From: Candidatus Woesearchaeota archaeon
GTDB lineage: Archaea; Nanobdellota; Nanobdellia; Pacearchaeales; GW2011-AR1
Direction of reading: 5' to 3'
Assembly (NCBI GenBank): GCA_964412025.1
Contig: CAYPLY010000002.1
Coordinates: forward strand, 33,614 to 97,613
DNA length: 64,000 nt
Shown one piece after another: positions 4,291 through 47,509 of the stretch; within the stretch, counting starts at the first letter, position 1; each line of letters begins with the position of its first letter. A program made the position numbers and the translations under genes. Below the pieces are notes generated by a model, which did not search any database, had not been told where the DNA came from, and saw only the letters and a list, made by a program, of their open reading frames with translations.

Positions 4291-4305
4291 TAAATAAAAA
4301 AGAAG

Positions 4306-4905: not shown

Positions 4906-4992
4906 ATCAAATTATAAACAACATATTATTAACTCAATCATAATACTTAAAAAGCACATTTTTCTGAGTGTATTATATTAGAGAGAATTAAA

Positions 4993-5487: not shown

Positions 5488-5507
5488 ATTCTTAATTAAA
5501 ATCTAGA

Positions 5508-6326: not shown

Positions 6327-6378
6327 ATACTTAACAAATCCCCCAACATTTAAAAATTCTCTTTTTTTATATAGGATT

Positions 6379-7252: not shown

Positions 7253-8263
7253 TTGTCTTTATTATTGATGGAACCTTTAATATTAGTAACTATATTTGTA
7301 AGCTTTTTTTGTGCCTTTCTTGTTATGCCTTTTTGGATAAAGAAGGCTAAACAAATAGGGTTAGTTTGGGAAGATATGAATAAACCTGACAGAGAAAAAA
7401 ATGTTGCAGGCTCTGGGGGTATTGTATTTGTTATTGGGGGACTTATTGGTATATTTACATATATTGCCCTACAAACATTTTATTTCAAGTCTTCAGATGG
7501 AATATCTATAGAAATATTTGCATTTACAAGCATGTTGCTTTTAGTATCTGGAATTGGATTAATAGATGATTTATTTGGATGGAAAAGAGGAGGACTTTCA
7601 AAAAGAACAAGAATAATTTTGGTTTTATTTTCCGCAATTCCGCTAATGGTTATTAATGCTGGAGAATCAAATATGATGGGAATAAGCCTCGGGATAATTT
7701 ATCCCCTAGTTATAATCCCTCTTGGTATAGTGGGGGCAACGACAACTTTCAATTTTTTAGCGGGATTTAATGGACTAGAAGCAGGGCAGGGAATAATACT
7801 TCTATCGGCTATGAGTGTTGTAACATATTTAACCGGAAATGCCTGGTTAACAGTTATTTCTTTATGCTTGGTTGCCTCTCTTTTAGCGTTTTATATATTT
7901 AATATAAATCCTGCAAAGGTCTTCCCAGGGGATGCTTTAACTTATGCTGTGGGGGCTTCAATAGCAGGAATTGCAATATTGGGAAATGTTGAGAAGATAG
8001 CAATATTTTTCTTTATACCATACATTCTTGAAACAGTATTGAAATTAAGGGGAGGATTAAAGAAACAAAGTTTTGGTAAACCAAATGAAGATGGAACTCT
8101 TGAATTGCCTTATGAAAAAATATATGGGCTTGAACATTTGGCAATATTAATTTTAAAAAAGATAAAACCCTCAAAAAAAGTCTATGAAAATGAAGTGGTT
8201 TATTTCATAAATTTGTTCCAGATATTTGTGGTTCTTGTTGGGTTTGTTTTGTTTATCCTGTGA
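7253..8263 (+). CDS. UDP-GlcNAc:dolichyl-phosphate GlcNAc-1-phosphate transferase (MraY/WecA/AglH family)
   Basis: GLIDDLFGW, NFLAGFNGLEAGQ and PGDALTYAVG motifs of the polyprenyl-phosphate sugar-1-P transferases; adjacent to aglB. Confidence 0.8.
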   Translation: MSLLLMEPLILVTIFVSFFCAFLVMPFWIKKAKQIGLVWEDMNKPDREKNVAGSGGIVFVIGGLIGIFTYIALQTFYFKSSDGISIEIFAFTSMLLLVSGIGLIDDLFGWKRGGLSKRTRIILVLFSAIPLMVINAGESNMMGISLGIIYPLVIIPLGIVGATTTFNFLAGFNGLEAGQGIILLSAMSVVTYLTGNAWLTVISLCLVASLLAFYIFNINPAKVFPGDALTYAVGASIAGIAILGNVEKIAIFFFIPYILETVLKLRGGLKKQSFGKPNEDGTLELPYEKIYGLEHLAILILKKIKPSKKVYENEVVYFINLFQIFVVLVGFVLFIL

Positions 8264-8299
8264 TAAACTAAGGTTTTTAAATGGTATTTATCTTTAATT

Positions 8300-10990
8300 T
8301 TGATGAACATTAAATCAGTAAAAGAAGAATCAAAAAAGGTTTTGGGTTTTCTAAAGCAGAAGAAAGTACTTATAATAATAACCGCTATTCTTTTGTTAGC
8401 TGTAATTTTCTTTACTGCTCAAATAAGGACTAATAATATATCCATATTAAAGGATGCTACAACCGGAGAATATCTTACAGCAGATTTAGATGCTTTTTAC
8501 TGGTTGAGACTTGCAGAAGTATTATATGAGAATGGGGCATACCCCGAATATGATGATATGAGGTATCCTTTACTTAAACTTCCATTCACGCATGAAATCT
8601 TGCCAAATGTATTAGTTTTTTTATATAAAATTATATCTCCTTTCTCAGAGAATATAACTCTGGCATATGTTGATGTTATTTATCCTGTAATCTTTTTTGT
8701 GTTAAGTATGGTCGTGTTTTTCTTTTTAATATTAAAACTTACTCGTTCTAAACTTGCTGCATTGCTTTCAAGCTTTTTTCTGGCAATAATTCCTTCATAC
8801 CTGTTCAGAACAATGGCAGGGGTTTCTGATCACGAGCCAATAGGAATGTTTGCGTTCTTCTTAGCACTCTTAGCATTTACAATATCGATGCAACAAATTG
8901 AAAAAAGAAATTCATGGAAATTGGCAATACTATTTGGAGTTATCACAGGATTTTTAACAGTGTTCAATATGGCTGCTTGGGGAGGATCTGCTATATTTAC
9001 CTTGTTGATAGTTCCATTAACAATATTCTTTCTTTGGATAACAAATATAAACAAAACGGAAGAGGGTAAAAATAATCTTAAAGAATATTTGATGTTTTAC
9101 ATATTCTGGATATTATCTTTTATATTGTTAGGAGGGTTATTTTCTTACCCTATAACAACATCATTAAGTTTTATAATGAATATAAGGGGAATAATCATAC
9201 CTCTTGTACTAATATTCCTTGTGGTAGATTATTTGGTTATGCATTTAAAAGACAGAAGAATAAGAGAGCTTGGAAAATATAGGATACTTGTAAGTCTAGG
9301 AATATCAATAATTCTTGGAATATTAATAAGTTTGATATTTAATCAGACAATAGGACTATCTATATCTGGAATTATATCTAATATACTTCGTCCATTTGGG
9401 GGAGGAAGAGTTGGTGAAACTGTTGCAGAGAATGCGCTTCCTTACACAACTGATATTATGGGACAGATAGGAAAATCAATGTTTTGGATATTCTTTGGGG
9501 GAATTCTTATTATGGGTATTGATTTTGCTAAGGGAATTGGAAAAAAGAAAAACAAAATAATATTCTCGTTAACATGGGCATTGATGATATGTGGAATATT
9601 ATTACATAGATATTCAACAAGTTCTTTATTTAATGGAACTTCATTTATAAGTAAGTTTTTTTATCTTGGAAGTATTATTCTTTTCTTTGGAATATTTATA
9701 TGGATATATTTTAAAGATAAGATAATTGTAAAGAGTGAGAAGATAATTTTACTTCTTTTCACATTTTTTATGGCTATGGCAGGGGTGAGTGCTATAAGAT
9801 TGTTGTTTATATTCACTCCTATAGTTTGTATAGTCGCTGCATATGCAATAGTGAGGATTTATCAGTATGGAAGAGATAGTAAAGATGAGATATTTAAAAT
9901 AGTGGCATATGCTGTTTTAGTTGGAGTTGTAGTACTTTTGATAATTGCTTCTGTAAATTATATAAAAGCCATTAAAATTCAATCGACTCAAATTGGTTCA
10001 TCTGCAAATGCACAATGGCAGTATTCAATGGAATGGGTAAGAGAGAATACTCAACCTGGAGAAGTTTTCGTTCATTGGTGGGATTATGGGTATTGGGTGC
10101 AATATATGGGTGAAAGACCAACCGTTACAGATGGTGGACATGGAAATCTTTATTGGGATCATTTAATAGGAAGGTATCTATTAACTACTCCTAACCCAGA
10201 TACTGCATTAAGTTTTATGAAAGCTCAGAATGTTTCTTATTTATTAATAGATCCAACAGATATAGGAAAATATTCTGCCTATAGCAGCATTGGAGGGAAT
10301 GAAAATGGAAATGATAGATTCTCATTTATACCTGTGATGGTATCTAATCCAGACCAGATACAAGAGACTAAGAACGGAACTATAAGAATATACAACGGGG
10401 GATATGGCTTGGACGAGGATATCATATACAAACAAGAGGATGGAAGCACTGTATTTATACCTACTCAAAATTCTGGAATAGGAGGGATAATTCTTGAAAA
10501 GGAAAAAGATAAATTCAAACAGCCTATCGCAGCATATATTTATAATGGAAATCAAATAAACCTTCCCGTAAGATATTTGTATTATAACGGAACTTGGTAT
10601 GATTTCAAAAATGGAACAAATACAGCAGTATATATAATTCCTCAAATAAGCCAGGTGAATACAGGACTTCAGCTAGATGAAGAAGGGGCTTTGATATATA
10701 TGTCATCAAGAGTTGTGGATAGTTTAGTTGCTCAGCTTTATTTGATGAACGATCCACAAGGAAAGTACGAAGGAGTAGAACTAGTACATTCTGAGCCAGA
10801 CCCAATAGAAACTTATCTTGAAAGATATGCAAATATGGATATTAATGAATTCTTTTACTTTAATGGACTTAGAGGACCGCTTAAGATATGGGAAGTTAAC
10901 CCCCCTGAGAATATAATTGCTAGAGAAGAATTCACTGCAATTTCTGGAGATTATGCAAGTTTGGATGATTTGGAATTTATAAAATTATAA
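8300..10990 (+). CDS. aglB: Oligosaccharyltransferase AglB (STT3 homologue)
   Basis: WWDYGYW catalytic motif (FVHWWDYGYWVQYMG); 13-TM N-terminal domain plus C-terminal soluble domain; 896 aa. Confidence 0.9.
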   Translation: MMNIKSVKEESKKVLGFLKQKKVLIIITAILLLAVIFFTAQIRTNNISILKDATTGEYLTADLDAFYWLRLAEVLYENGAYPEYDDMRYPLLKLPFTHEILPNVLVFLYKIISPFSENITLAYVDVIYPVIFFVLSMVVFFFLILKLTRSKLAALLSSFFLAIIPSYLFRTMAGVSDHEPIGMFAFFLALLAFTISMQQIEKRNSWKLAILFGVITGFLTVFNMAAWGGSAIFTLLIVPLTIFFLWITNINKTEEGKNNLKEYLMFYIFWILSFILLGGLFSYPITTSLSFIMNIRGIIIPLVLIFLVVDYLVMHLKDRRIRELGKYRILVSLGISIILGILISLIFNQTIGLSISGIISNILRPFGGGRVGETVAENALPYTTDIMGQIGKSMFWIFFGGILIMGIDFAKGIGKKKNKIIFSLTWALMICGILLHRYSTSSLFNGTSFISKFFYLGSIILFFGIFIWIYFKDKIIVKSEKIILLLFTFFMAMAGVSAIRLLFIFTPIVCIVAAYAIVRIYQYGRDSKDEIFKIVAYAVLVGVVVLLIIASVNYIKAIKIQSTQIGSSANAQWQYSMEWVRENTQPGEVFVHWWDYGYWVQYMGERPTVTDGGHGNLYWDHLIGRYLLTTPNPDTALSFMKAQNVSYLLIDPTDIGKYSAYSSIGGNENGNDRFSFIPVMVSNPDQIQETKNGTIRIYNGGYGLDEDIIYKQEDGSTVFIPTQNSGIGGIILEKEKDKFKQPIAAYIYNGNQINLPVRYLYYNGTWYDFKNGTNTAVYIIPQISQVNTGLQLDEEGALIYMSSRVVDSLVAQLYLMNDPQGKYEGVELVHSEPDPIETYLERYANMDINEFFYFNGLRGPLKIWEVNPPENIIAREEFTAISGDYASLDDLEFIKL

Positions 10991-10991
10991 T

Positions 10992-12092
10992 ATGAAAAAC
11001 AACATGGATAAGGTTGCGATAGTAAAATGTGGAAGTTATAAACAAGAGGATATAGATTTGGCTGTAAACAGAGTCTTGAAGTTGCTAGATTTACCTGTGA
11101 ATAAATATAAACATATCCTGATTAAGCCAAATATAATAGGATATTTCAAAGAGAATTTGGATGCAATCATAACTAACCCCTCAATTGTTAAATCCTTGAA
11201 AAAAAATTTTAAAAATGCAAGGGTTGGGGAAAGCTCTTTTAGTGATACAAGAGAAAATATCAGGAAATCTGGATATCAACAATTTAAACCAATAGTTTTT
11301 GAGGAAGAAGAGACTGTAGATATCGAAGATAAAAATGCAAAGGTATTGAAACATTTTAGGCTCCCTAAATCAGTTAAGGAAGCAGATTTGGTAATTAATG
11401 TGTGTAAATTAAAAACCCATCTTTTAACAAAGCTTACGGGAGGGGTAAAAAATCTTTATGGATGTATTCCTGGAAGTGTAAAACAAGTGTACCATAGAGA
11501 TGCAGAGGGAGAGAAAAAATTTTCTAAACTATTGATAGATGTTTACCAAAACATTAAACCCCAGTTGAATATTATGGATGCAGTTATTTCTATGGAAGGG
11601 GGAGGACCAACTGCGGGAAAGCCAAAAAAGACAAAATTAATCATAGCCTCACGAAATACTATCGCATTAGATGTTGTCGCCTCCAAAATAATGGGATATA
11701 ATCCAAAAAGTATATTTACAACAAGAGAAGCAGTTAAAAGAAATCTTGGGAGTTATAATGTAGAGATTGTTGGAGATTTCAAAAAGATCCCAAATTTAAG
11801 ATTTGATAAACCCTCAAGATTAAGAAGACTAATGGCTGATATGTTATTGTTAGGAGTTAGAAAAGAAAAAATTGTGGTGGACGAAAGCAAATGTACAAAA
11901 TGTGGAATTTGTGCGAGACATTGTCCTATGAAAGCTATAACCCTCAAACCTTATCCGGTAGTCGATGAGAAAAAGTGTATAAGGTGTTTTTGTTGCATTG
12001 AAGTTTGTCCAAACCATGCCCTATCCTTAAGAGAGAATTTTATGAGAAGGATGGTTAATTTTGTTAAAAAGACTGTAAATAAGATTAGATAA
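10992..12092 (+). CDS. DUF362 domain protein with C-terminal 2x[4Fe-4S] ferredoxin domain
   Basis: CTKCGICARHCP and CIRCFCCIEVCP CxxCxxCxxxCP motifs; DUF362-like N-terminal region. Confidence 0.55.
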   Translation: MKNNMDKVAIVKCGSYKQEDIDLAVNRVLKLLDLPVNKYKHILIKPNIIGYFKENLDAIITNPSIVKSLKKNFKNARVGESSFSDTRENIRKSGYQQFKPIVFEEEETVDIEDKNAKVLKHFRLPKSVKEADLVINVCKLKTHLLTKLTGGVKNLYGCIPGSVKQVYHRDAEGEKKFSKLLIDVYQNIKPQLNIMDAVISMEGGGPTAGKPKKTKLIIASRNTIALDVVASKIMGYNPKSIFTTREAVKRNLGSYNVEIVGDFKKIPNLRFDKPSRLRRLMADMLLLGVRKEKIVVDESKCTKCGICARHCPMKAITLKPYPVVDEKKCIRCFCCIEVCPNHALSLRENFMRRMVNFVKKTVNKIR

Positions 12093-12107
12093 ATAAATAG
12101 AATTTTT

Positions 12108-13268
12108 ATGTTTTATAAAATGAAAAAGAAAATAGCTATATTTCACCCTTGGATAAAAAGCAAGGGAGGAGCAGAGAAAACTGTGCTTGAAATATTAAAA
12201 AACATAAAAAATGCTGAGTTATACACCTGGGTTTATGAAAAAGAAAATACCTTTGAGGAATTTAAAGAATTCAAAATAAATGTTATAGGAGGTAAATTTT
12301 TCAGAAGATTTTCAAGATCCAATATTTTGAGGGGGATGTTCCTGATAAATTGCTTGTTTTCTAAAATACCTCTGGAGAAATATGATTTGTTTTTAATCTC
12401 AACTTCTGGATTGGCTGAATTTATTACGTTTAAAAATTACAAAAAAGGGAAGACATATGCATATGTTCATACTCCCTTGAGAGATGCTGATGAAGAGATT
12501 ATGAAATGGAATTTAAAAAATAGGCACAAAAATATTTTCTCTAAATCTATTTATAAGCTAGCCGTAAATTTTTACAAGGTTTTAGAAAAAAAATCCTGGA
12601 AGAAGATAGACTTTGCTATATTCAATTCTGAATTAAGTTTAGAGAGGGCGAAAAAGAGAAAACTGTTATATTCAAAAAAAGTAAATGTCATCTATCCTCC
12701 AACTGAGATAAAATATATAGAAAATATAAAAACAAAGAATAATGGATACTTTTTCTATCCCTCAAGAATTAACAACCCAAAAAGACAGGATTTATTAGTA
12801 AAATCCTGGAAGGTATTCTCAGAAAAACACCCTGATGAAAAACTAATCATAGCAGGTAGTATGGAGAATAAAAAATATTACAACCATATAAAAAAACTAT
12901 CAGAAAATATTCCCAATATTGAGATAAAAACAAACATAAACAACAACGATTTTCTTAGATTGTACAAAGAATGTAAGGCAGTTATATTCATACCCTTTAT
13001 GGAAGACTTTGGAATAGTTCCTTTTGAAGCACTCGCTTTTGGTAAGCCTGTGATTGCAGTAGACAAAGGAGGATATGTTAAATTAATAGAAAAAGTTCCA
13101 CAATATTTCAAGATAAAAGAAACCTCCTCAGAAAAAGATATGATAAAAGAGATAAATAATACCCTAGAGATATTTTTAAGATCAAAAATAACCCCTAAAA
13201 AAATAACAAATCTATCTTACAACACGAATAATTTTATAAAGAATATAAGCAAAACATTAGGGTTGTAA
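12108..13268 (+). CDS. Glycosyltransferase family 4 (GT-B)
   Basis: EDFGIVPFEALAFGKPVIA (E-x7-E region) typical of GT4. Confidence 0.7.
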   Translation: MFYKMKKKIAIFHPWIKSKGGAEKTVLEILKNIKNAELYTWVYEKENTFEEFKEFKINVIGGKFFRRFSRSNILRGMFLINCLFSKIPLEKYDLFLISTSGLAEFITFKNYKKGKTYAYVHTPLRDADEEIMKWNLKNRHKNIFSKSIYKLAVNFYKVLEKKSWKKIDFAIFNSELSLERAKKRKLLYSKKVNVIYPPTEIKYIENIKTKNNGYFFYPSRINNPKRQDLLVKSWKVFSEKHPDEKLIIAGSMENKKYYNHIKKLSENIPNIEIKTNINNNDFLRLYKECKAVIFIPFMEDFGIVPFEALAFGKPVIAVDKGGYVKLIEKVPQYFKIKETSSEKDMIKEINNTLEIFLRSKITPKKITNLSYNTNNFIKNISKTLGL

Positions 13269-13269
13269 A

Positions 13270-14121
13270 ATGAAAGAACTTGTATCAATAAACATTCCAA
13301 CTTATAACAATATAAAAACATTGGGTAAGACTCTTGAGAGTATAAAAAATCAAACTTATACAAACCTAGAGATAATTATAATTGATAGCAATAGTACGGA
13401 TGGTACTTTAGATCTAATCAAGAAATTTAAGGGAATAAAAGTATATCAATATCAGGGCACTCTTTTGGGGGCAAGAGGGTTAGGGGTGGAAAAGTCAAAG
13501 GGAAAATATGTTTTTCTTGTAGATTCTGATCATGTTCTTAAATCGGATACGATTGAAAAGGGGGTTGAATCAATGAAAAAATACGACATGTCCTGGTTGT
13601 ATGAAAGAAGTTACAAACCTAGAAAACTTCTTGAGAGATTGTATGATGCAGACAGAGTTCTAGTTCAAAATGATGCTTCCGAATATATAGAACCTGTGGG
13701 AGGAACTATTCTCCCAAGAGTGTACAAAAGAGAAATCTTGGTGGAAGCATTCAATAAAATACCTAAGAAGATATTGCCTCTTTGTGTTGCTCATGATCAT
13801 GCGATAATATATTACGAAGCAAAAAAAATATCAAATAAAATAGGAAATATTGGAGATTACAATCACCCTGCAATCTGGCATCAGGAACCATGGAGTTGGA
13901 AGAATTTATTTAAGAAAACTTATAGATATGGAATTACAACAAGGAAATTAGTTGAGAATAAAGTTTATCCTGAGCTTTTAAAATCGAAAAATAAGGGGAG
14001 AAAGATAAAAATAAAATATTTAGGATTAGCTGTAAAAAGCAATATACTTAGGGCAATAAGGGCAATTCCTTATTTATACGGATATTGGAGAGGAAGAAAA
14101 AGGAAAATACCGACCCTATAA
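13270..14121 (+). CDS. Glycosyltransferase family 2
   Basis: VSINIPTYNNIKTLGKTLESI...IIIIDSNSTDGT; GT-A N-terminal signature with DxD. Confidence 0.7.
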   Translation: MKELVSINIPTYNNIKTLGKTLESIKNQTYTNLEIIIIDSNSTDGTLDLIKKFKGIKVYQYQGTLLGARGLGVEKSKGKYVFLVDSDHVLKSDTIEKGVESMKKYDMSWLYERSYKPRKLLERLYDADRVLVQNDASEYIEPVGGTILPRVYKREILVEAFNKIPKKILPLCVAHDHAIIYYEAKKISNKIGNIGDYNHPAIWHQEPWSWKNLFKKTYRYGITTRKLVENKVYPELLKSKNKGRKIKIKYLGLAVKSNILRAIRAIPYLYGYWRGRKRKIPTL

Positions 14122-14156
14122 GTAGAAAAATATTAAATAAGATTTAAGTTATAGTT

Positions 14157-15068
14157 ATGGATAAAAAACTAGCAATAATAATATGTGGATATAATCAGAA
14201 GAAACTTCTTAAGGACTGTCTTAAAAGTATAAAGAAAAAAACCTCTTATAAAAACTACAAGGTGTATTTTATAGATGATTCTGGAAAAGGAGAAATAGCT
14301 AAAGAAGTAAAGAGAGATTTCACCTGGGTAAATGTCTCTGAGAATAAGGAGAATCTAGGGTTTTCTAAATCAAACAATATAGGGATAAATAAAGCAATGA
14401 AAGAATACAACCCGGATTATTTCCTTTTATTAAATGATGATACAGAGATTGTAGATGGTAAGTGGATTGAAAAGATGATAAAAACGGGGGAAAAGGACAA
14501 AAGAATAGGAATATTGGGATGTAACATAATTTATCCTGATGGAAGCCTACAAAACATAGGAGGATATCTAAGAAAATGGAAGATTGAATTAGAAGATGAT
14601 AAAAACAAGAAAGAGATTTTTGAGGTGGATCATGTGATGGGGGCATTTTTAATGATAAAAAAAGAGGTAATAAAAGAAATAGGTGTCTTAGATGAAGTAT
14701 TCTCTCCTTATTTATTAGAAGATACGGACTATTGTTTAAGAGCCAAGAAAAAAAGGTGGAAAATTGTAAGTGTACCCGAAGTTAAGATAATTCATAAAAA
14801 AGGCAAGAGTATTGACTCTCAAGAAAATAAAAAAAGTCTTCTGGTTAGATTTAAAAACGACATTATCTTTTCAAAAAAACACCTTAAAGGATGGAATAAA
14901 TTTTTTAGAATATTTATTTACCTTCCTTTGGTTGCAGTTTTTAGGAAAAAACAAGACAGAGATAAACTAAAGCTAAGTAAGTTTAGAATAAGAAAAAAAT
15001 TCTTAAGAAACTTGGGTTTATGGGTTATTGCATTTTTCCCTAGAATGTACAAGAATAAGTTAAGATGA
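14157..15068 (+). CDS. Glycosyltransferase family 2 (paralogue of 19225..20160)
   Basis: LAIIICGYNQ...YKVYFIDDSGKGEIAKEV...LLNDDTEI is a GT2 signature; strong similarity to the 19225 gene. Confidence 0.7.
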   Translation: MDKKLAIIICGYNQKKLLKDCLKSIKKKTSYKNYKVYFIDDSGKGEIAKEVKRDFTWVNVSENKENLGFSKSNNIGINKAMKEYNPDYFLLLNDDTEIVDGKWIEKMIKTGEKDKRIGILGCNIIYPDGSLQNIGGYLRKWKIELEDDKNKKEIFEVDHVMGAFLMIKKEVIKEIGVLDEVFSPYLLEDTDYCLRAKKKRWKIVSVPEVKIIHKKGKSIDSQENKKSLLVRFKNDIIFSKKHLKGWNKFFRIFIYLPLVAVFRKKQDRDKLKLSKFRIRKKFLRNLGLWVIAFFPRMYKNKLR

Positions 15069-16078: not shown

Positions 16079-16117
16079 AGGTTAAAGCAATCTATTTAAA
16101 TTAAAGACTTCCTTTTA

Positions 16118-17263: not shown

Positions 17264-18225
17264 AATTAATCAAAAAATGCGAGGTATGTGGAAGTAGAGA
17301 GATAAAATTTTTATTCAAACAGAAGGATAAGAATCTAGATGTAGATAAAGAATTTTCCTTGTTTAAATGTAATAAATGTAATTCTTTATTTCCAAATCCA
17401 CAACCCACAAGCAAAGAGCTTGAAGAATATTATCCAAGAGATAAATACTACTCGTTGAGAAAAATATGCTCAAAAGAAGAATCAAAAAAAACTAAACTTA
17501 ATCTATTCTTATATGAATTATACTTTGATCTAAAAATTAAAAATCATCTTATGAGAATGATATTTTCTCCAATAAAATTTATCGTGAGAGGTACAAAGAT
17601 AAAAAAAGGGGATAAAATATTGGATATAGGGTGTGGATCAGGACAATTTCTATATGAGATGAATGAACTGGGGATGAGGGTTTATGGGGTTGAACCTGGA
17701 GAGTTTGATAAAGAAGGGAAAAATAAATATAAACTCAATATAAAAAACTCCGATTTAATAAACGCAAAATACCCTAAAGAATTCTTTGATATAATTACAA
17801 TAAACCATGTTTTGGAACACTTAAACAATCCAGATAAACAAATAAAAGAAGTTTATAGGATACTGAAAAAAGAGGGAAAATTTATAATTGGTATACCCAA
17901 TAGCAATTCTTTAGTATACAAATTATTTGGTAAAAATTGGCATCAATTAGATATACCTAGACACTTATGGAACTATTCAAACAAAAATATAAAGATATTA
18001 CTGGAAAGAAACGGATTTAAGATTAGAAAAACAAGATACAACTCAAGACCAAATCAGTTTGTAGTATCATTATATTTTCTACTTGGGATAAAAAACAGGA
18101 GTGGTAAACTAAACAGGATATTGGAAGTTATTTTCCTTCCACTAACATGGTTTGTAAACTTCTTAAGAATGGGAGACCAGATAGAAGTTTGGTGTGAGAA
18201 AGAAGTTGGGCATATAAATTATTAG
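17260..18225 (+). CDS. Class I SAM-dependent methyltransferase with N-terminal zinc ribbon
   Basis: CEVCGS...CNKCNS Zn-ribbon; ILDIGCGSGQF motif I. Confidence 0.7.
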   Translation: MKLIKKCEVCGSREIKFLFKQKDKNLDVDKEFSLFKCNKCNSLFPNPQPTSKELEEYYPRDKYYSLRKICSKEESKKTKLNLFLYELYFDLKIKNHLMRMIFSPIKFIVRGTKIKKGDKILDIGCGSGQFLYEMNELGMRVYGVEPGEFDKEGKNKYKLNIKNSDLINAKYPKEFFDIITINHVLEHLNNPDKQIKEVYRILKKEGKFIIGIPNSNSLVYKLFGKNWHQLDIPRHLWNYSNKNIKILLERNGFKIRKTRYNSRPNQFVVSLYFLLGIKNRSGKLNRILEVIFLPLTWFVNFLRMGDQIEVWCEKEVGHINY

Positions 18226-18308
18226 AGGAAGTATATTTGGATAAATAAATATTATTTTATATGCTATATATATTTAAAAAGAATTTCAAATAGGATAAAA
18301 TAGGTAAA

Positions 18309-19244
18309 ATGTCCATACAAAAGAAGATTTTAATAACCGGATGTGGGGGGATGCTTGGGAAGGCAATGTATGAAACTTTTAATAAAGAATTTAGAGTTTT
18401 AGCAACAGACATCGACTTAAACGAACCTTGGTTAAAATACCTTGATGTACGAGATTATGAACTTGTTAAAAAAGCTATTCAACAATTTAAACCAGACATT
18501 ATTTTTCATCTTGCTGCATTAACAGATTTAGAGTTTCAGGAAAAGAACCCTGAAGAAGCATATAAAACAAATGCTATTGGAACCGAAAATGTGGTGTTAC
18601 TTGCAAAGGAATATGATATTCCTTTGTTATATATCTCTACAGCAGGGATATTTGATGGTAAAAAGGATTTGTATGATGACTTTGATCCTCCAAATCCCTT
18701 AAGTGCGTATGGAAAATCAAAATATTATGGAGAAAGTCTTGTGAAAACATATCTTGACAAATATTTTGTTGTTAGGCCGGGTTGGATGATGGGCGGGGGG
18801 AAAAAGGACAAAAAATTTGTACAAAAAATAATACAACAGCTTAAGGAAGGTAAAAATGTTCTAAATGTCGTTGAAAATGTTTATGGAACTCCAAGCTATA
18901 CATATGATATTGCAAAGACGGTAAGAGAACTCATAAAAACAAAATATTATGGAGTATACAACTGCGTTTGTGGGGGAGGAAGAGTAAGTAGATATGATGT
19001 TGCACTGGAGTTAATAGAAGTGCTTGGATTAAAAGATAAAATTAAAGTGAATAAGGTATATTCTGATTTTTTTGCTTCTGATTTTTTTGCTCCCAGACCA
19101 CGTTCAGAGGCACTTATAAACAAGAAACTGGAGATTAGAGGATTGAATAGGATGAGAGATTGGAGAGCGTGTTTGGCTGAGTACGTTGAAAAAGAGTTTA
19201 AAGATATGAAAGAAAAGAATATACATGATATCTTTCATAAATAA
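18309..19244 (+). CDS. NAD(P)-dependent sugar epimerase/reductase, RmlD (dTDP-4-dehydrorhamnose reductase)-like
   Basis: ILITGCGGMLG Rossmann motif; YGKSK (YxxxK) catalytic motif; ~310 aa. Confidence 0.6.
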   Translation: MSIQKKILITGCGGMLGKAMYETFNKEFRVLATDIDLNEPWLKYLDVRDYELVKKAIQQFKPDIIFHLAALTDLEFQEKNPEEAYKTNAIGTENVVLLAKEYDIPLLYISTAGIFDGKKDLYDDFDPPNPLSAYGKSKYYGESLVKTYLDKYFVVRPGWMMGGGKKDKKFVQKIIQQLKEGKNVLNVVENVYGTPSYTYDIAKTVRELIKTKYYGVYNCVCGGGRVSRYDVALELIEVLGLKDKIKVNKVYSDFFASDFFAPRPRSEALINKKLEIRGLNRMRDWRACLAEYVEKEFKDMKEKNIHDIFHK

Positions 19245-20160
19245 AATGAAAAACCCAAAAGTAGCCATAATCACCTCAACATTTAATCAGGAAGAGAATC
19301 TTAAAAAATGCTTAATAAGTCTTAGAAAAAATGTTAATTATTCAAGATACAAGGTTTATTTTATTGACGATTCTGGAACTGGAAAAATCGCAAAAAAAAT
19401 CAAAAAAGATTTCCCTTGGGTAGATGTTTCTGAAAATCTCCAAAATGAGGGGTATTCTACCTCAAACAACAAACTTGCAAAAAAAGCAATAAAAGAATAT
19501 AATCCGGATTATATCTTACACATAGACGATGATACTCTAATAATTGACAAGAACTGGTTGAAAGAGATGGTTAAGTTTGCGGAAGGAGACAAAAAAATAG
19601 GGGTTGTTGGATGCAAGGTAACATATCCCAAAGGAGAATTACAATGGTTTTACAAAGATAAAAAGATGAATTTTTTAAAGTCTCCAAAAAGAATAATTGA
19701 GACCCCAGAGACGTTTGGAGCATATAAAGTCGATAACGTTATTGGGGCCTGCTTCTTAATTAGAAGAAGTGTTATTGATGAGATAGGATTCCTAGATGAG
19801 AAATTTAATCCTGCCTATGGTGAAGAGACGGATTTCTGTTTAAGGGTAGGTAAAAAAGGATTTAAACTTTTTTATGTGGGAAAAGTAAAAATAGTCCATA
19901 TTGGAGGATCTTCAACAAAACATGTAAAGGATTGGATTTGGCAAATAAAGAAAAGAAATTCTATAAGGCTAGAATGGCTTAATTTTGGATATCCAAAGAT
20001 AATATATAATACATTTATTCATTTTGGCTCTGCAATAATTAATGAGAAACCATTTCAAAAAATTAAATTACTTCTAAGAGCATATAATGAAAACTTCAAG
20101 AATTTTAATGAAATAAAGAAGAAAAGAAGAGAAAGAAATAGCTGGGATAAAATTACTTAA
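19225..20160 (+). CDS. Glycosyltransferase family 2 (paralogue of 14157..15068)
   Basis: VAIITSTFNQ...YKVYFIDDSGTGKIAKKIKKDFPWVDVSEN...HIDDDT. Confidence 0.7.
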   Translation: MISFINKMKNPKVAIITSTFNQEENLKKCLISLRKNVNYSRYKVYFIDDSGTGKIAKKIKKDFPWVDVSENLQNEGYSTSNNKLAKKAIKEYNPDYILHIDDDTLIIDKNWLKEMVKFAEGDKKIGVVGCKVTYPKGELQWFYKDKKMNFLKSPKRIIETPETFGAYKVDNVIGACFLIRRSVIDEIGFLDEKFNPAYGEETDFCLRVGKKGFKLFYVGKVKIVHIGGSSTKHVKDWIWQIKKRNSIRLEWLNFGYPKIIYNTFIHFGSAIINEKPFQKIKLLLRAYNENFKNFNEIKKKRRERNSWDKIT

Positions 20161-21028
20161 TATATTTTGAGTATCTTCTCTTGTTTTTTGTTATCTCTTC
20201 TGGAAAAGTGCTATCTAAATTTACGTAATTTATTTTAAGTTTATCCATAAACAAATCCTCTCCGTTTTCAATCTTATCTATTATTTTTTTAGGATTCTTT
20301 AAATCCAAACTTGAGTAATTTTCAATATGACAAAAATTAGATAATTTTTCCAGAATAAAATCTATATTACCCAGATAAGAAAAGTGCCAACCCCCATCAT
20401 TAATTCTTCTTAAGGGGTTATCTTTACCTTTAAATAAGAACATCCTAATTCTTAAACTAATATTTCTTAGTCTCCTTAATCTATCTCCTTTCTTTTTGAA
20501 TAATTTTTTAAATACCTTAAAATTACATGCTCTCGAACCTTCCCAATTAGAATGAACAAAACCGTTTAAGAAAAATTTATACAGGTTTTGAGAAAAAAGA
20601 ACTATTTTATCTCTTTTTGTAAATTCTTTTAGTAAGTCAAATTTTTTTGGGTTTGGGATTTCATCCAAATCTGAAACTATAATTATATCCTCATCTTTAC
20701 AATTTTTTAGTCCCTTTTGTATTTGGTTCCTTTGATATATTTCTGGTTTCCATCTCCCAAGTCCGAGCACAGAGCTCAGCTTCCAAAATTTTTTGAAATA
20801 TAGCTTTCCTGGATTTGGCATATCATCAACGATGATATGAATTATCTTATTCTCCCATTTCTTGAATTTGCTTTTGTTGTATTTAAAATACAATTGCTTT
20901 TGTTTTCCAGCATGAGTTTTTGTCGCCTCTACTAAAACAAAGTAATCCACAAATGGATTTAAAATTTTTAGCCTTAATTCTAGAACATCAAGCTCATTAT
21001 AAAAAGTAAAGCAATCATAAATCTTCAT
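20153..21028 (-). CDS. Glycosyltransferase family 17-like (beta-1,4-GlcNAc transferase GnT-III-like fold)
   Basis: N-terminal MKIYDCFTFYNELDVLELRLKILNPFVDYFVLVEA is the hallmark of the GT17 domain. Confidence 0.55.
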   Translation of the reverse strand: MKIYDCFTFYNELDVLELRLKILNPFVDYFVLVEATKTHAGKQKQLYFKYNKSKFKKWENKIIHIIVDDMPNPGKLYFKKFWKLSSVLGLGRWKPEIYQRNQIQKGLKNCKDEDIIIVSDLDEIPNPKKFDLLKEFTKRDKIVLFSQNLYKFFLNGFVHSNWEGSRACNFKVFKKLFKKKGDRLRRLRNISLRIRMFLFKGKDNPLRRINDGGWHFSYLGNIDFILEKLSNFCHIENYSSLDLKNPKKIIDKIENGEDLFMDKLKINYVNLDSTFPEEITKNKRRYSKYIK

Positions 21029-21059
21029 AAAAAAATAAAGAGAGGAGAGATATTTAAGT

Positions 21060-22577
21060 TTATTCTTTTCTTTTGATTAAATTTCTCAATAAAATCCAAT
21101 CTTCCTTGTCAATTCCTTTAAACAAAATTAAAAATCCTAGATAAATTCCGGCCCCAAGTACAACTTCAACTATTCCTAAAAAGATGTTTATATCCAGCAG
21201 ATAATTAAACGTCCAAAGGAATGCTCCCATTATTACTGTTGCACATAATGGGGCTCTCAACCCAATACCCTTAACTTTGAAACCAAACTCTTTCTTTACA
21301 TAAAACAACAATAATCCTAGAAGAAATACCCTACTTAGAGAAGTAGCCAGGCTAACCCCTCCTATTAGGAATAATGGATTATCCGAAAATATCTTTATTG
21401 CTACGAAATTAAGAATTATATTTAAGATTAAAGCAAGAAAAACTGAATTGCCTACTCTGTTTGATTTCTCTTTGGATTCAAGGATTATTGAATACAACCC
21501 AATTAGAGGGGTAGTCAAAATTAGTATAGAAAGTAAGTGGAGTGAAGAAGTTCCTAAAAGATATTCATTTCCGTAAACTGCCTTAATTAGGTAATTAGAA
21601 AGGAATACTACACCTATAACTGCGGGTATAGATAAAATCAATAGATACCTTAATGTCTTCCTGAATCCTCTTTCGAATCTTTTCTTATCTATCTGGGTGA
21701 ATATTGGTAAAAATATACTTGATAAAGAAAGCAAAGAAGAAATTGCAATTGCTAAACTTAATGCTGCTCTATAATAAGCAAGATATTCTGAGGATATTGC
21801 AGTACCTAACATCAATGTATCAACTAATGCAAAAAGAGAGAGTGAAACTGTTGCTAAAGCCATATACTTCCAATAAGAGTTCATTTTGGAAGTTTCCATT
21901 TTGCTCTTTTGACCAAAAATAGAACTTTTGTCTTTTCTACGAATTATAAAGAACTCAAGCAAAAGGGTAAAAAAGCTGGATACAAAAAACGCAATGAATA
22001 TACCAGATACAGTTAGTTTATCTGAGAGGATTAAAATAGCAAATACTGAGAAAAGTATCTTCAATATCTGAGAAGAAGAATCAAAGAATAAAATAGATTT
22101 AACATCTTTCCTAGATGTGAAAAAAACCCCTAAAAGTGTTCTAAATGATTCGGCGATTATAAACAAGCAGGATAATATTAAAGGATAAAATAACAATGGT
22201 TGTTTGTAAATATTGTAAGAAAGGTACTTTGAGGATACAATTAAAATGACTACTACAGCGATAACTAAGACGAACCTTAGTTTAAAGAAATAACTTGCAA
22301 GACTTCTTGATTTTCTTTTGTCTTTCTTTCCTGTTGAATCAGAAAGGTATCTTAAAAAAGTATTTTCCATACCAAAGTCTGTGAAAGATAAAGCCAGAGT
22401 AACAATAGAAATAGCTAGAGCATAAACTCCAAATAATTCTGGTAAAAGCATTCTTGCAAGAATCACAGTTAAAATTAATCCTCCAAATTTAAGAACTAGC
22501 AAAGATATTACATTATATGCTGATCCCTTTAAAGCTATCTTTGACAAGTTTTGTGAGGATATATCACTTTTTCGCAT
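21060..22577 (-). CDS. Oligosaccharide flippase, Wzx/MOP-superfamily (AglR-like)
   Basis: ~12-14 TM helices, 505 aa, embedded in the glycosylation cluster. Confidence 0.6.
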   Translation of the reverse strand: MRKSDISSQNLSKIALKGSAYNVISLLVLKFGGLILTVILARMLLPELFGVYALAISIVTLALSFTDFGMENTFLRYLSDSTGKKDKRKSRSLASYFFKLRFVLVIAVVVILIVSSKYLSYNIYKQPLLFYPLILSCLFIIAESFRTLLGVFFTSRKDVKSILFFDSSSQILKILFSVFAILILSDKLTVSGIFIAFFVSSFFTLLLEFFIIRRKDKSSIFGQKSKMETSKMNSYWKYMALATVSLSLFALVDTLMLGTAISSEYLAYYRAALSLAIAISSLLSLSSIFLPIFTQIDKKRFERGFRKTLRYLLILSIPAVIGVVFLSNYLIKAVYGNEYLLGTSSLHLLSILILTTPLIGLYSIILESKEKSNRVGNSVFLALILNIILNFVAIKIFSDNPLFLIGGVSLATSLSRVFLLGLLLFYVKKEFGFKVKGIGLRAPLCATVIMGAFLWTFNYLLDINIFLGIVEVVLGAGIYLGFLILFKGIDKEDWILLRNLIKRKE

Positions 22578-22593
22578 AAATATTTAAAAGGAA

Positions 22594-23190
22594 TTGGGGT
22601 TTTTAAACGAAATGGAAAATAAAACAAGTATAAATAAGATTTTAGATGAATTTATTGGGATAGAGATAATAAAAACAAGACCAAAAGAAGCAATAACCTT
22701 TGCTAAGAGATATTTTAAAAATAAACATATAACCGCTATAGAGATAGGTGTGTTAAGAGGCGTAAACTCCAAAGAAATTCTAAAAAATTTAAATGTTGAT
22801 AAATTATACCTTATTGATCCTTGGTTATCTTATTTAGAATATAGAAAATCTGAGCCTAGAAGGACTCAAAATTCTTTGAATAAAGATTTTAGGATATGCA
22901 AACAAAAACTAAATAGATATTCTAAAAAAATAGAATATATTAAGAAATTTTCGCATGAAGCTATAAATTTAGTCCCGGTTGTAGACTTTATATATATAGA
23001 TGGGAATCATGAATATGAGTATGTTAAAAAGGATTTAGAAATGTATTGGAAAAAGATAAAAAAAGGAGGAATTTTATCAGGACACGACATACAATATCTA
23101 GGAGTAAGCAGAGCATTATTAGATTTTGCAAAAAAGAATAAGTTAGAAATTTTATTTGGAGATAGAAGGGATTGGTGGATAATAAAATGA
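22594..23190 (+). CDS. Class I SAM-dependent methyltransferase (macrocin-O-MT/TylF-like)
   Basis: IYIDGNHEYEYVKKDLEMYWKKIKKGGILSGHD. Confidence 0.5.
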   Translation: MGFLNEMENKTSINKILDEFIGIEIIKTRPKEAITFAKRYFKNKHITAIEIGVLRGVNSKEILKNLNVDKLYLIDPWLSYLEYRKSEPRRTQNSLNKDFRICKQKLNRYSKKIEYIKKFSHEAINLVPVVDFIYIDGNHEYEYVKKDLEMYWKKIKKGGILSGHDIQYLGVSRALLDFAKKNKLEILFGDRRDWWIIK

Positions 23191-24332
23191 AAAAGATAAA
23201 AGTTCTACTAGATTTTAATATAACCAACAGAACACATTCTTTATATCATTCATTTTTCAATAATCCTCCGGAAGGTGTAGAGTATAAAAAATCCGAGTTT
23301 AGAGGAATCAATGACAAAAATTATTCTAAGCTTGGGAAGATATACTGGAGAATTGTTAAAGTTTTTCCAATTATAGAGAAGTTTCATCAGAATATAGGAG
23401 ATTTTTTAAGAAAGGAGTCTGGATTTGACTTGGTGCACTTTACATTTCATCTTGGAAATACAAGAAAGCCCTGCGTTGTTGATTATGAAAGTGCATATAG
23501 CTTTATAGATATTAGAAATAAAGAAAATAGGAAAGACAAAAGAAAAGCAACAAAACTCCTAAACAAAAGAAATGTTAAGTTCCTAATGCCAATACATGAA
23601 GAAGCATTAAAATCATTTAATCTTTTTTTTAAAGGTAAAATAAAAAAGCCTCAAGAGATAGTATATCCCACAATATTTATACCAGAAAATTTTAGAAAAT
23701 ATGTAAAAAAAGAAAATCGGGTTGTTTTTATATCCACATCTAATAACCTTAATGATCAAGCGTTCTTAATAAAAGGGGGTTTAGAGACAATTAAATCATT
23801 TGAGAAATTGGCTAAAAAATATCCAAATTGGGAATTTTTAATACTTGGAAAGATACCTCCTTATATAGAACATAAATTCCCAAGAAATATAATTCTTAAA
23901 GAAGGGGTTCCAAGAGAAGAAATGTGGAAAATATTTAATGAGTCGAGTGTTTTTGTTCAGCCTTGCTATCAAGCTCCTGCAATGGCATTTTTGGAAGCAA
24001 TGTGGTTTAAGCTTCCAATAATTACTTATAACGTTTGGGGAAATTCAGAATATGTGGATTCATTTAATGGAATCCTAATTAACCCGGAGGAAATAAATCA
24101 TATAGATAAAAACAATATTCCGGTGTATACTGAAGAAGTGCTTAATAAAATTAAAAAAAATGCAAATAAAAATTCAATCAAAATAGAAAAGGCGTTGGAA
24201 AAATTAATGGAAAATAAAAGATTAAGAGAAAAACTTGGAGAGAATGGATTTCAGAGAGTTTCCAATGGAAAATTTTCCATAGACAAAAAGAACGAAAAGT
24301 TAAGAAAAATATATAAGGAGGCACTTTCTTAG
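23172..24332 (+). CDS. Glycosyltransferase (GT-B/GT4-like)
   Basis: VQPCYQAPAMAFLEAMWFKLPIITYNVWGNSEYV resembles the GT4 C-terminal region. Confidence 0.45.
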   Translation: MVDNKMKKIKVLLDFNITNRTHSLYHSFFNNPPEGVEYKKSEFRGINDKNYSKLGKIYWRIVKVFPIIEKFHQNIGDFLRKESGFDLVHFTFHLGNTRKPCVVDYESAYSFIDIRNKENRKDKRKATKLLNKRNVKFLMPIHEEALKSFNLFFKGKIKKPQEIVYPTIFIPENFRKYVKKENRVVFISTSNNLNDQAFLIKGGLETIKSFEKLAKKYPNWEFLILGKIPPYIEHKFPRNIILKEGVPREEMWKIFNESSVFVQPCYQAPAMAFLEAMWFKLPIITYNVWGNSEYVDSFNGILINPEEINHIDKNNIPVYTEEVLNKIKKNANKNSIKIEKALEKLMENKRLREKLGENGFQRVSNGKFSIDKKNEKLRKIYKEALS

Positions 24333-24338
24333 AAAAAA

Positions 24339-25154
24339 ATGGGGAGGATAGGGATAACGGGGGCTAGTGGATTTATAGGAAATAATGTAGCAAAATATCT
24401 TGCAGATAGGGGATATAAAATAGTGGCTTTTGGAAGAGAATCCGATAGAAACTTTGACCATAACAATGTGGAGTGGAAAATAGTTGATTTGAATTCTATA
24501 CAAAAAGGGGATTTTGAAGGAGTGGGAAAATTAATTCATTTTGCTGGAGCATACACTGCTCAGGATGCTTTTAGTAAAAATGTATCAATGTTAAAAAAAG
24601 TTTTAGATATTGCACATGATGCGGAAGTAGAAAATTTTTACATGATTTCTACTTATGCCGTGTTTGGAGATAGAAAAACTCCTGCAAATATTACTGCTCC
24701 TTACGCTCCTCTAGAGGCATATGCTATGAGTAAAGTTATAGGAGAAGAAGAGTTTAACAGAAGAAAATCGTCGGGACAAATTAAGGGGACTATAATAAGA
24801 CCATGTAGCATTTATGGAAAATACGGAAGAAATTTTGTAGATATTATAAAAGAAAAGATAAAAAAACAAGAAGAAATACAAATGGTATGTTTTAGAAACC
24901 AATTCTTACATGTGGATGATTTCTCAGAAGAATTAATAAAAATAATAGAAGAAAAGAATCTTGAACCTTCTTATAACATAGAGGGAGAAGTAATAACAGA
25001 GATGGTTTTAAAAGATATATTTGAGGAAATGAATACTCCTTTTTCTTTAAGTGACCATCAGACAAGAAGTTATTGGTGCAAGGGTAATTTCCCTTTGATG
25101 AAAAATAATGTAAGAAAGTATCTTAACGAAGCGAAAAAGGAGGTAACAAATTAA
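24339..25154 (+). CDS. NAD-dependent epimerase/dehydratase family protein
   Basis: IGITGASGFIGNNVAKYL GxxGxxG; YAMSK YxxxK. Confidence 0.65.
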   Translation: MGRIGITGASGFIGNNVAKYLADRGYKIVAFGRESDRNFDHNNVEWKIVDLNSIQKGDFEGVGKLIHFAGAYTAQDAFSKNVSMLKKVLDIAHDAEVENFYMISTYAVFGDRKTPANITAPYAPLEAYAMSKVIGEEEFNRRKSSGQIKGTIIRPCSIYGKYGRNFVDIIKEKIKKQEEIQMVCFRNQFLHVDDFSEELIKIIEEKNLEPSYNIEGEVITEMVLKDIFEEMNTPFSLSDHQTRSYWCKGNFPLMKNNVRKYLNEAKKEVTN

Positions 25155-25155
25155 A

Positions 25156-25704
25156 ATGCCATTCGAATTTGAAAAAACCTCTATTGACGGAGTATATCTA
25201 ATAAAACCAAAAATATTCGGAGATGAAAGAGGATTCTTTTTGGAGACGTACAAGAAGGATGATTTTGAGAAAGAAGGGATAACTGGAGATTTCGTCCAGG
25301 ACAATCATTCAAAATCAAAAAAGGGGGTAATAAGAGCAATTCATTTACAAAAAGGGAAACATGCCCAAGCAAAGATAGTTAGGTGCATAAAAGGAGCGAT
25401 ATGGGATATTGCAGTAGATTTAAGAAAAGATTCTCCCACTTTTGGAGAATATGTTGCATTTGAGCTTAATGAAGAAAATAAATATATACTTTACATACCA
25501 AGAGGGTGTGGACATGGATTTGCTGCATTAACTGAAGGAGTTGAGATGGAATATAAAAATGATAATCTTTACAGCCCTGAGAACGAAACAGGTGTTGTAT
25601 GGAACGATTCTGATTTAAAAATTCCCTGGCCAGTTGAAAATCCAATTGTTGCTGAAAAAGATAAAAGACTCCTAACCCTTAAAGAGTTTAAAGAAAGATT
25701 ATAA
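25156..25704 (+). CDS. rmlC: dTDP-4-dehydrorhamnose 3,5-epimerase (RmlC)
   Basis: GVYLIKPKIFGDERGFFLETYKKDDF...RAIHLQ...PRGCGHGF, the RmlC cupin signature. Confidence 0.8.
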   Translation: MPFEFEKTSIDGVYLIKPKIFGDERGFFLETYKKDDFEKEGITGDFVQDNHSKSKKGVIRAIHLQKGKHAQAKIVRCIKGAIWDIAVDLRKDSPTFGEYVAFELNEENKYILYIPRGCGHGFAALTEGVEMEYKNDNLYSPENETGVVWNDSDLKIPWPVENPIVAEKDKRLLTLKEFKERL

Positions 25705-45411: not shown

Positions 45412-45526
45412 AATTATTTAGTAGTAACATTATTTATAAACCTTGCTATTTTATACCTACTAATTAGTTACATCAAATTAGAGATAAAGGTTTTTATAGA
45501 GCCTTATTTTTGTAACAAGATACTAC

Positions 45527-45610: not shown

Positions 45611-45647
45611 TAATAAGCTTTATAAACCCTCCAAAATTAACAAATTC

Positions 45648-47504: not shown

Positions 47505-47509
47505 ATAAT

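Follow-up and report, generated by a model that had tools for sequence, protein, structure and literature searches.

What does a radical S-adenosylmethionine (SAM) enzyme do in the N-glycosylation locus of an archaeon? The question is raised by a stretch of 64,000 nucleotides from a Candidatus Woesearchaeota archaeon (contig CAYPLY010000002.1; hereafter the window), in which positions 7253-25704 carry an agl locus and, within it, a radical SAM gene at 15065-16078. A first-pass annotation had read this gene and a nearby gene for a DUF362 iron-sulfur protein as signs of unusual redox or radical chemistry on an elaborate glycan. Our best explanation, held at a probability of about 0.6, is an agl N-glycosylation locus of a DPANN archaeon (Pacearchaeota/Woesearchaeota group) with a core and a distal cassette and with a sugar-acting, BtrN-like radical SAM enzyme.

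The radical SAM gene and the AglB core

The open reading frame (ORF) listing and the Pfam scans gave 17 consecutive ORFs in 7253-25704, every one with a glycan-related domain, and the grouping is therefore no chance event. A priming transferase, glycosyltransferases (GTs), a flippase and AglB with the catalytic motif WWDYG at residue 593 are all encoded together. The first reading as a dense agl-type locus is thereby borne out, and all genes named in it are present where they had been placed, with strong Pfam support. The AglH-like (PF00953) and AglB (STT3) ORFs are adjacent, as had been described, and separated by 36 bp. The conserved core would comprise the SpoIIM-like, AglH-like, AglB, GT1, GT2, GT2, twitch radical SAM, GT4 and zinc-ribbon methyltransferase genes. 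They are listed here together with the DUF362 gene that lies among them:

6283-7236, + strand: SpoIIM-like membrane protein (PF01944, E 5e-14)
7253-8263, + strand: AglH/WecA-like polyprenyl-phosphate N-acetylhexosamine-1-phosphate transferase, priming (PF00953, E 1e-28)
8300-10990, + strand: AglB/STT3 oligosaccharyltransferase, 896 amino acids (PF02516, E 8.5e-18, and the STT3-PglB core domain)
10992-12092, + strand: DUF362 protein fused to a 2x[4Fe-4S] ferredoxin (PF04015, E 6e-46, and Fer4 domains)
12108-13268, + strand: GT1-group (GT-B) glycosyltransferase GT1_a, conserved core module (PF00534, E 3e-22)
13270-14121, + strand: GT2 glycosyltransferase GT2_a, conserved core module (PF00535, E 2.5e-26, and synteny)
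14157-15068, + strand: GT2 glycosyltransferase GT2_b (PF00535, E 7e-19)
15065-16078, + strand: twitch-domain radical SAM enzyme, BtrN-like, 337 amino acids (PF04055 and PF13186)
16118-17263, + strand: GT4-type (GT-B) glycosyltransferase GT4_b, conserved core module (PF13439 and PF00534, and synteny)
17260-18225, + strand: class I SAM methyltransferase (Methyltransf_23) with an N-terminal CxxC...CxxC zinc-ribbon-like motif (PF13489, E 5e-27)

Related loci were collected by scanning one genome per species, which yielded 23 DPANN loci (45-92% identity) and two bacterial relatives. The loci carry L-numbers, and their neighbouring genes were scored by tblastn with the window proteins. Named homologues of the radical SAM, DUF362 and GT17 proteins belong to metagenome-assembled genomes (MAGs) of Candidatus Pacearchaeota, Woesearchaeota and Nanoarchaeota; those of the GT17 protein also to Caldisericia, Patescibacteria and Paceibacterota. 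In 20 of 28 archaeal loci, AglB and the radical SAM gene are at most 8 kb apart. Among the remaining eight, six have flanks shorter than 3.7 kb, and four of these six still have neighbouring GTs. Counted over the informative DPANN loci (45-92% identity), AglB is within 8 kb in 20 of 22, while the position of the radical SAM gene within the cluster shifts. The placement of the gene with the glycan locus, proposed from the window alone, thus holds in other genomes.

The gene order shows which part of the locus is retained. The contigs of the 68%, 56% and 49% identical homologues share an IF-2B gene (- strand), SpoIIM, the PF00953 transferase, STT3, radical SAM, GT1 and methyltransferases. In closer relatives of the window, the order GT1, GT2, GT2, radical SAM, GT4, methyltransferase is kept, and GT1_a has orthologues with 56-85% identity at the equivalent site in L001 and L004-L012. 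A minimal arrangement of AglH, radical SAM and AglB is found in L021 and L023. Other orders are AglB, radical SAM (L022), UDP-GlcNAc 2-epimerase, radical SAM (L002, L016, L019) and prefoldin, radical SAM, IF-2B (L017). The outer genes of the loci, of fucosyl-, sulfo-, nonulosonate- or rhamnose-type, are wholly different: they include GT11, GT92, a sulfotransferase, nonulosonate-type cytidylyltransferase and aldolase genes, and a B12-dependent radical SAM gene. Even the closest relative, L011, whose core genes are 84-97% and whose Wzx is 90% identical, has other genes in the interval from the methyltransferase to Wzx. Since the radical SAM gene stays with AglH and AglB despite differing outer genes, it follows the invariant part of the pathway and not the variable decorations. 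The radical SAM protein is also better conserved than AglB, for example 68% versus 40% in L001. Judged by these sequence neighbourhoods, it is most likely a core enzyme of the glycan pathway rather than a peripheral tailoring enzyme.

Further radical SAM genes occur in two of the loci. In L019 (the P0104 locus), a second radical SAM/SPASM gene is found at 17639-18454, and this locus also contains ScmC-like, ATP-grasp, PHP and deacetylase genes. The twitch enzyme of L023 has a B12-binding radical SAM gene (5416-6714) directly upstream.

The family extends far beyond archaea. A profile search of 1.84 billion representatives returned 4506 clusters at E<=1e-30, mostly with 320-345 amino acids. A relative in Pirellulales (31% identity) is located between GT9/GT4 and GT2 genes, with a heparinase-like gene and a zinc-ribbon methyltransferase of 321 amino acids nearby; the latter aligns with the 17260-18225 product at E 3e-16. 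The relative in an unclassified bacterium with low G+C content (35% identity) sits among genes for sulfate activation, a sulfotransferase, FkbM and class I methyltransferases, a GT1, a second radical SAM enzyme and Wzx. Four long members (P0383, P0460, P0464, P0390) are fusions that involve Methyltransf_23, GNAT, a hexapeptide acyltransferase and a tandem radical SAM domain. The methyltransferase half of P0383 aligns with the 17260-18225 product (E 5e-22), including the N-terminal CxxC...CxxC and an NPxP motif. Counting the window, the zinc-ribbon methyltransferase is adjacent to, or at most 1.3 kb from, the radical SAM gene in 12 loci, and it is farther away in four. A universal pairing of the two enzymes was ruled out by several loci without a nearby methyltransferase; it stays a frequent association.

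The first-pass annotation had assumed that the radical SAM enzyme and the DUF362 protein jointly tailor an elaborate outer glycan by C-methylation, epimerisation or deoxygenation. Both iron-sulfur proteins are indeed encoded inside the operon, two methyltransferases and deoxysugar genes are present at the locus, and in the window, L040 and L041 the DUF362 gene adjoins the AglB stop or overlaps with it, suggesting co-transcription. This explanation is nevertheless unlikely. The radical SAM gene is retained where the outer genes differ wholly, even in the minimal loci L021 and L023, so that it marks the AglH/AglB core and not an unusually elaborate outer glycan. The radical SAM protein has no B12 domain or HemN-type features in the Pfam and NCBIfam scans that would suggest radical C-methylation.

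The DUF362 protein separates from the radical SAM enzyme in the comparison of genomes. It has two CxxCxxCxxxCP ferredoxin motifs and scores 157 bits against PF04015 (cut-off 24 bits); its 575 homologues are mostly from the same archaeal group. Of the 24 archaeal radical SAM loci whose flanks could be used, 20 lack the gene. A position after AglB and before the next GT is limited to the window, L011 (97% identical) and L040/L041 (73%); in L004 and L005, that GT directly follows AglB. Orthologues with 66%, 63% and 55% identity are found beside genes for TFIIB (- strand), S8e (- strand), LSM and a metallo-beta-lactamase-fold protein, without glycan genes. The copy in L043 is 72% identical both to the agl-context copy and to the housekeeping-context copy; it is therefore one orthologue at two locations. 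A very large protein (2000+ amino acids) is encoded upstream of the DUF362 neighbourhood in L042 and L044. The distribution indicates that DUF362 was relocated into the operon recently and in this sub-lineage only, and the protein is probably not glycan-specific. The conserved context elsewhere contradicts the role in glycan chemistry assigned to it before. A dedicated partnership with the radical SAM enzyme was rejected, since the gene is missing from most radical SAM loci and has a housekeeping context of its own; a role as redox partner would be speculation.

DUF362 and DUF2088, the N-terminal domain of LarA, are members of one Pfam clan (PMC11770544). The model of the window protein has a predicted local distance difference test (pLDDT) value of 76, high in the DUF362 part, and its top 17 fold matches are all from the LarA family, at weak scores (E ~2e-5, TM-score ~0.4). 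Compared with LarA and the nickel-pincer racemases, the DUF362 protein is shorter and has the C-terminal 2x[4Fe-4S] ferredoxin domain. A literature search for DUF362 found no published function.

Twitch domain, fold relatives and likely chemistry

Cysteines C65/C69/C72 form the radical SAM cluster motif CX3CX2C. Only four more, C261, C279 (in GDVVLC), C324 and C327, are found in the C-terminal domain, and all seven are invariant in 20 homologues with 48-74% identity. The second SPASM cluster motif, CX2CX5CX3C, was found neither in the window protein nor in the best 150 representatives of the wider family. The term twitch domain denotes a shortened SPASM domain with one bound auxiliary cluster (PMC9012708). 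By its cysteines, the domain of the window protein is therefore a twitch domain with one auxiliary cluster and not the full SPASM domain named at first. A conserved, basic and helical N-terminal extension of ~55 amino acids precedes the core.

Subfamily profiles and the motif check confirmed a radical SAM enzyme, but the SPASM motif is incomplete and no named subfamily was returned. NCBIfam gave 37 partial matches, none near its own cut-off; hence no named subfamily applies. The top match, the tungsten-cofactor maturase TIGR04317, reached 113 bits against a cut-off of 380 bits and covered residues 59-240 only. The rSAM_BlsE model scored 44 bits (cut-off 400 bits).

By sequence, the top PDB match is BtrN (E 5.8e-15), aligned over both the core and the twitch domain, followed by BlsE and then by the archaeal tetraether lipid synthase (E 2.4e-6). 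C279, C324 and C327 align with three of the four BtrN cysteines that we take to be the ligands of the BtrN cluster. An AlphaFold model on the family alignment (pLDDT 87.4, predicted template modelling score 0.87) was compared with the PDB by Foldseek. BtrN was again first (E 4e-15, target-normalised TM-score 0.77). BlsE was second, the peptide maturase SuiB third and DesII the fourth distinct protein, with anSME, SkfB and MoaA below. Among the four best-ranked distinct proteins by fold, three act on sugars or sugar nucleotides.

BtrN is the 2-deoxy-scyllo-inosamine dehydrogenase of the butirosin pathway (PDB 4M7T). Its substrate is a carbohydrate-like secondary alcohol. The window enzyme appears to share with it the radical SAM core and a twitch domain with a four-cysteine auxiliary [4Fe-4S] cluster. 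The reaction of BtrN is a two-electron oxidation (PMC9012708). The differences are an identity of only about 15-19%, the additional N-terminal extension of the window enzyme, and the context, which is aminoglycoside biosynthesis for BtrN and protein glycosylation or polysaccharide assembly for the window enzyme. Pfam detected no aminoglycoside genes and no partner aminotransferase in the cluster; the window enzyme is thus no BtrN orthologue, although it is proposed to work in a BtrN-like manner. BlsE (cytosylglucuronate decarboxylase) and DesII (TDP-4-amino-4,6-dideoxyglucose deaminase) are sugar-acting enzymes of similar fold from antibiotic pathways, with 14-16% identity. They illustrate that this fold class performs several different radical reactions on nucleotide-linked sugars.

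The following pathway is consistent with these relationships. A lipid-linked methylated oligosaccharide, probably with a 6-deoxyhexose, would be assembled on the cytoplasmic face. The sugar attacked by the radical SAM enzyme would be an inner or common one, either still a nucleotide-sugar precursor or already part of the lipid-linked glycan, and would lose a hydrogen atom from one of its carbons. Most likely, it would undergo a two-electron oxidation and become a keto-sugar, and the auxiliary cluster would accept the second electron, as has been proposed for BtrN; epimerisation or dehydration come close behind. Further processing of the product may follow, often by the neighbouring methyltransferase. 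Wzx would flip the lipid-linked oligosaccharide, and AglB would transfer the glycan to secreted proteins rich in sequons, whose genes lie at 49-63 kb.

Several observations weigh against this reading. The reaction type depends on the 15-19% identity to BtrN, and radical SAM enzymes of similar fold catalyse very different reactions. The cluster has no aminotransferase that would use a keto-sugar in the manner of the BtrN pathway. The 6-deoxyhexose branch is incomplete in the window: RmlA and RmlB were not found among its 60 ORFs of at least 120 amino acids, scanned or long enough, and may be encoded elsewhere in the genome. L017, L018, L020 and L023 lack the methyltransferase in the vicinity of the radical SAM gene. 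Two loci are true exceptions to the linkage with glycan genes: L014 and L015 have housekeeping surroundings, that is, adenylosuccinate lyase and seryl-tRNA synthetase or diphthamide synthase and L11, and no glycan gene nearby. The IF-2B-like, prefoldin and SecY genes are conserved in the same neighbourhood and are not glycan genes, and part of the synteny may be inherited gene order instead of functional linkage.

The last two points, and the equally syntenic EMC3/YidC-like gene, would fit a housekeeping maturase (for a cofactor, a tRNA or a protein) unrelated to glycans, whose gene travels with a conserved SecY-to-AglB neighbourhood. The top NCBIfam match to a tungsten-cofactor maturase points the same way, but it covers only the radical SAM core, and its score rules out this maturase identity. 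The gene also moves within the cluster and yet remains linked, the bacterial relatives are located in polysaccharide clusters without SecY or AglB synteny, the fusion partners are of the sugar-tailoring type, and the closest solved structures are sugar-acting. A housekeeping maturase is even a little less probable than joint outer tailoring with DUF362.

A modification of the polyprenol or dolichol carrier, or of another membrane lipid, is improbable. AglH and AglB, which the radical SAM gene tracks, both handle the carrier, the N-terminal extension could sit on the membrane, and the tetraether lipid synthase is matched by sequence and also by fold (25% identity over 193 residues). However, only the radical SAM core resembles the lipid synthase. 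By fold, BtrN, BlsE and DesII are placed above it, no locus has adjacent lipid-biosynthesis genes, and the methyltransferase, GNAT and hexapeptide acyltransferase fusions are typical of sugar tailoring.

Least probable is a SPASM-type or anSME-type maturase for a small peptide or the glycoprotein targets, to which the Pfam SPASM label, the fold matches to SuiB, anSME and SkfB, and, in the P0104 locus, a 70-amino-acid ORF that comes after the radical SAM gene would point: all NCBIfam maturase models are far below their cut-offs, an enzyme for ribosomally synthesised and post-translationally modified peptides is ruled out by the missing second SPASM motif and by the 39 bp to the next GT in the window, which leave no room for a precursor ORF, and Pfam detected none of the sulfatase, peptidase or transporter genes typical of such peptides at the locus, the missing sulfatase also ruling out anSME.

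Distal cassette, target proteins and surroundings

In contrast to the core, the distal cassette would be the fast-changing part of the locus. Its genes, and the probable targets of the pathway, are:

18309-19244, + strand: RmlD-like dTDP-4-dehydrorhamnose reductase, variable cassette (PF04321, RmlD_sub_bind, E 7e-57)
19225-20160, + strand: GT2 glycosyltransferase GT2_c (PF00535, E 2e-20)
20153-21028, - strand: GT17-family glycosyltransferase, short prokaryotic type (PF04724, E 1.8e-28)
21060-22577, - strand: Wzx/AglR-like flippase for the lipid-linked oligosaccharide (PF13440, PF01943 and MurJ matches)
22594-23190, + strand: Methyltransf_24 class I methyltransferase (PF13578, E 2e-14)
23172-24332, + strand: GT1-group glycosyltransferase GT1_c (PF00534, E 1e-15)
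24339-25154, + strand: short-chain NAD-dependent sugar epimerase/reductase, 271 amino acids (PF01370, E 5e-29)
25156-25704, + strand: RmlC, dTDP-4-dehydrorhamnose 3,5-epimerase (TIGR01221, 232 bits against a cut-off of 155.75 bits; PF00908, E 3e-68)
49295-62928, - strand: block of secreted proteins enriched in N-x-S/T (sequon counts and signal-peptide-like N-termini)

The window has a G+C content of ~31%. The junctions of the first twelve genes on the + strand measure 16, 36, 1, 15, 1, 35, -4, 39, -4, 83 and -20 bp, which is a tight or overlapping, operon-like arrangement; the GT2_b stop and the radical SAM start overlap by 4 bp. The divergent Wzx and Methyltransf_24 ORFs, as listed, are 16 bp apart (22577-22594). 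The TTG starts of the ORFs at 7253, 8300, 22594 and 23172 are probably mechanical, with an in-frame ATG one to six codons downstream. Likely true starts are ATG 7268 for the AglH-like gene, ATG 22612 for Methyltransf_24 and ATG 23187 for GT1_c. No NCBIfam cut-off was reached by the AglH-like protein (equivalog models) or by the 271-amino-acid epimerase/reductase, and the RmlD-like protein was just below that of TIGR01214 (202 versus 224 bits).

By Pfam, eight GTs are encoded: the AglH-like protein, three Glycos_transf_1, three GT2 and the GT17 protein. The count of nine plus GT17 and AglB was too high; nine is reached only by including AglB. GT2_b and GT2_c, taken for recent paralogues, are only 48% identical over 222 amino acids. 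Orthologues of GT2_b in other species are closer (53-84% identity), so the duplication is old and predates those species.

The GT17-like protein has 291 amino acids and scored 100.1 bits against PF04724 (cut-off 26 bits), with two stretches that cover part of the 348-position profile, the best being positions 74-204. It shares this family with the eukaryotic bisecting GlcNAc transferase MGAT3 (GT17), but it belongs to a very large prokaryotic group of ~290-amino-acid proteins. At E<=1e-5, 5018 homologue clusters were found, typically of this length. The supposed rarity of GT17 outside eukaryotes is thus not upheld; the family is common in prokaryotes. A 40% identical homologue is encoded in the agl locus of L021. 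A PDB search by sequence matched no solved structure.

The probable glycosylation targets are six sequon-rich ORFs at 49-63 kb, all with signal-peptide-like N-termini. Their N-x-S/T content is ~1.7-3.5 times the composition-based expectation. The 2437-amino-acid protein, which carries Big_13 and Big_7 domains, has 106 sequons (46.8 expected), a 320-amino-acid protein has 22 (6.3 expected), and four further ORFs of the block are enriched ~1.7-3 fold. The sequons of a 366-amino-acid multi-pass membrane protein (60993-62093) are not enriched. These surface proteins are enriched in sequons as had been seen, although not saturated. The six ORFs end with a shared C-terminal motif (YYFWVELE, YYLYVELG, IFYVEIF, KFAVEIY), which may serve as a signal for sorting or anchoring, or may represent a terminal beta-strand that is conserved.

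The locus is embedded among protein-export genes and sits between the spc-type and alpha-type ribosomal operon blocks. On the 5' side are genes for the ribosomal proteins L19e, L18, S5, L30 and L15, followed by SecY, EMC3/YidC-like, prefoldin, IF-2B-family (- strand) and SpoIIM-like genes. SecD/SecF (- strand) closes the cluster on the 3' side, followed by three tRNAs, 5S rRNA, a GH3 gene and the S13/S4/S11/RpoD block. The order SecY, EMC3/YidC-like, prefoldin, IF-2B-family (- strand), SpoIIM-like, AglH/AglB recurs in DPANN genomes (window 2899-7236; L002 1-4617; L017 6306-13497). The SpoIIM-like gene, immediately 5' of AglH/AglB in the window, is beside these genes in 14 related loci, among them L001, L002, L004, L005, L007, L016-L021, L023 and L026.

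Two further proteins near the cluster may act on host or environmental glycans: a GH3-family glycoside hydrolase (29198-30238, - strand) and a protein with a CBM96 module (37970-39565, - strand). The stretch 42900-49052, directly before the surface-protein block, has genes for a HerA/DUF87-like ATPase (42900-44963, - strand), tRNA-Leu (45527-45610), a recombinase fragment (47803-48222, - strand) and a tyrosine integrase (48219-49052, - strand), and may be an integrated mobile element.

Meaning for N-glycosylation in DPANN archaea

The cluster itself is largely of an ordinary, well-known kind. The aglB-linked cluster of Haloferax volcanii and the agl genes of Methanococcus likewise combine AglB with a priming transferase, GTs of the GT2 and GT4 type, a methyltransferase, a Wzx-like (AglR-like) flippase and deoxysugar genes, and their targets are also secreted N-x-S/T proteins. 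Differences are the radical SAM enzyme as a core component, the GT17-family GT, the DUF362/ferredoxin gene and the site between the SecY block and SecDF. The conserved radical SAM component has no counterpart in described N-glycosylation pathways; we know of none, in any domain of life, with such a radical step. To our knowledge, N-glycosylation in DPANN archaea has not been studied experimentally, and no N-glycan has been described for the group. For Haloferax, dTDP-rhamnose genes that feed the N-glycan are known (cited in PMC11407970). The word radical is not used in this 2024 review of archaeal N-glycosylation (PMC11407970). Literature searches on radical SAM enzymes in archaeal N-glycosylation, in polysaccharide and O-antigen clusters, on twitch enzymes with nucleotide sugars and on Pacearchaeota found nothing relevant.

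For annotation, the Pfam label SPASM conceals a twitch domain, DUF362 is a passenger in this cluster, and GT17-like genes are common in prokaryotes. More tentatively, at somewhat less than even odds, the twitch radical SAM enzymes form a large class of radical enzymes of glycan pathways (~4500 clusters at 50% identity), with an obligatory radical step on the conserved inner N-glycan, or on its nucleotide or lipid-linked precursor, in DPANN archaea of the Pacearchaeota/Woesearchaeota type, often together with the zinc-ribbon methyltransferase that is in some cases fused to the enzyme. Surface glycoproteins of DPANN archaea probably mediate the attachment to host cells. Should AglH and AglB indeed have a radical SAM enzyme as their fixed partner, new chemistry would enter a pathway thought to be limited to glycosyltransferases and conventional sugar-nucleotide enzymes. 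Such a partnership would also offer a starting point for assigning functions to the thousands of unannotated 'radical SAM/SPASM' genes that lie in polysaccharide clusters of bacteria.

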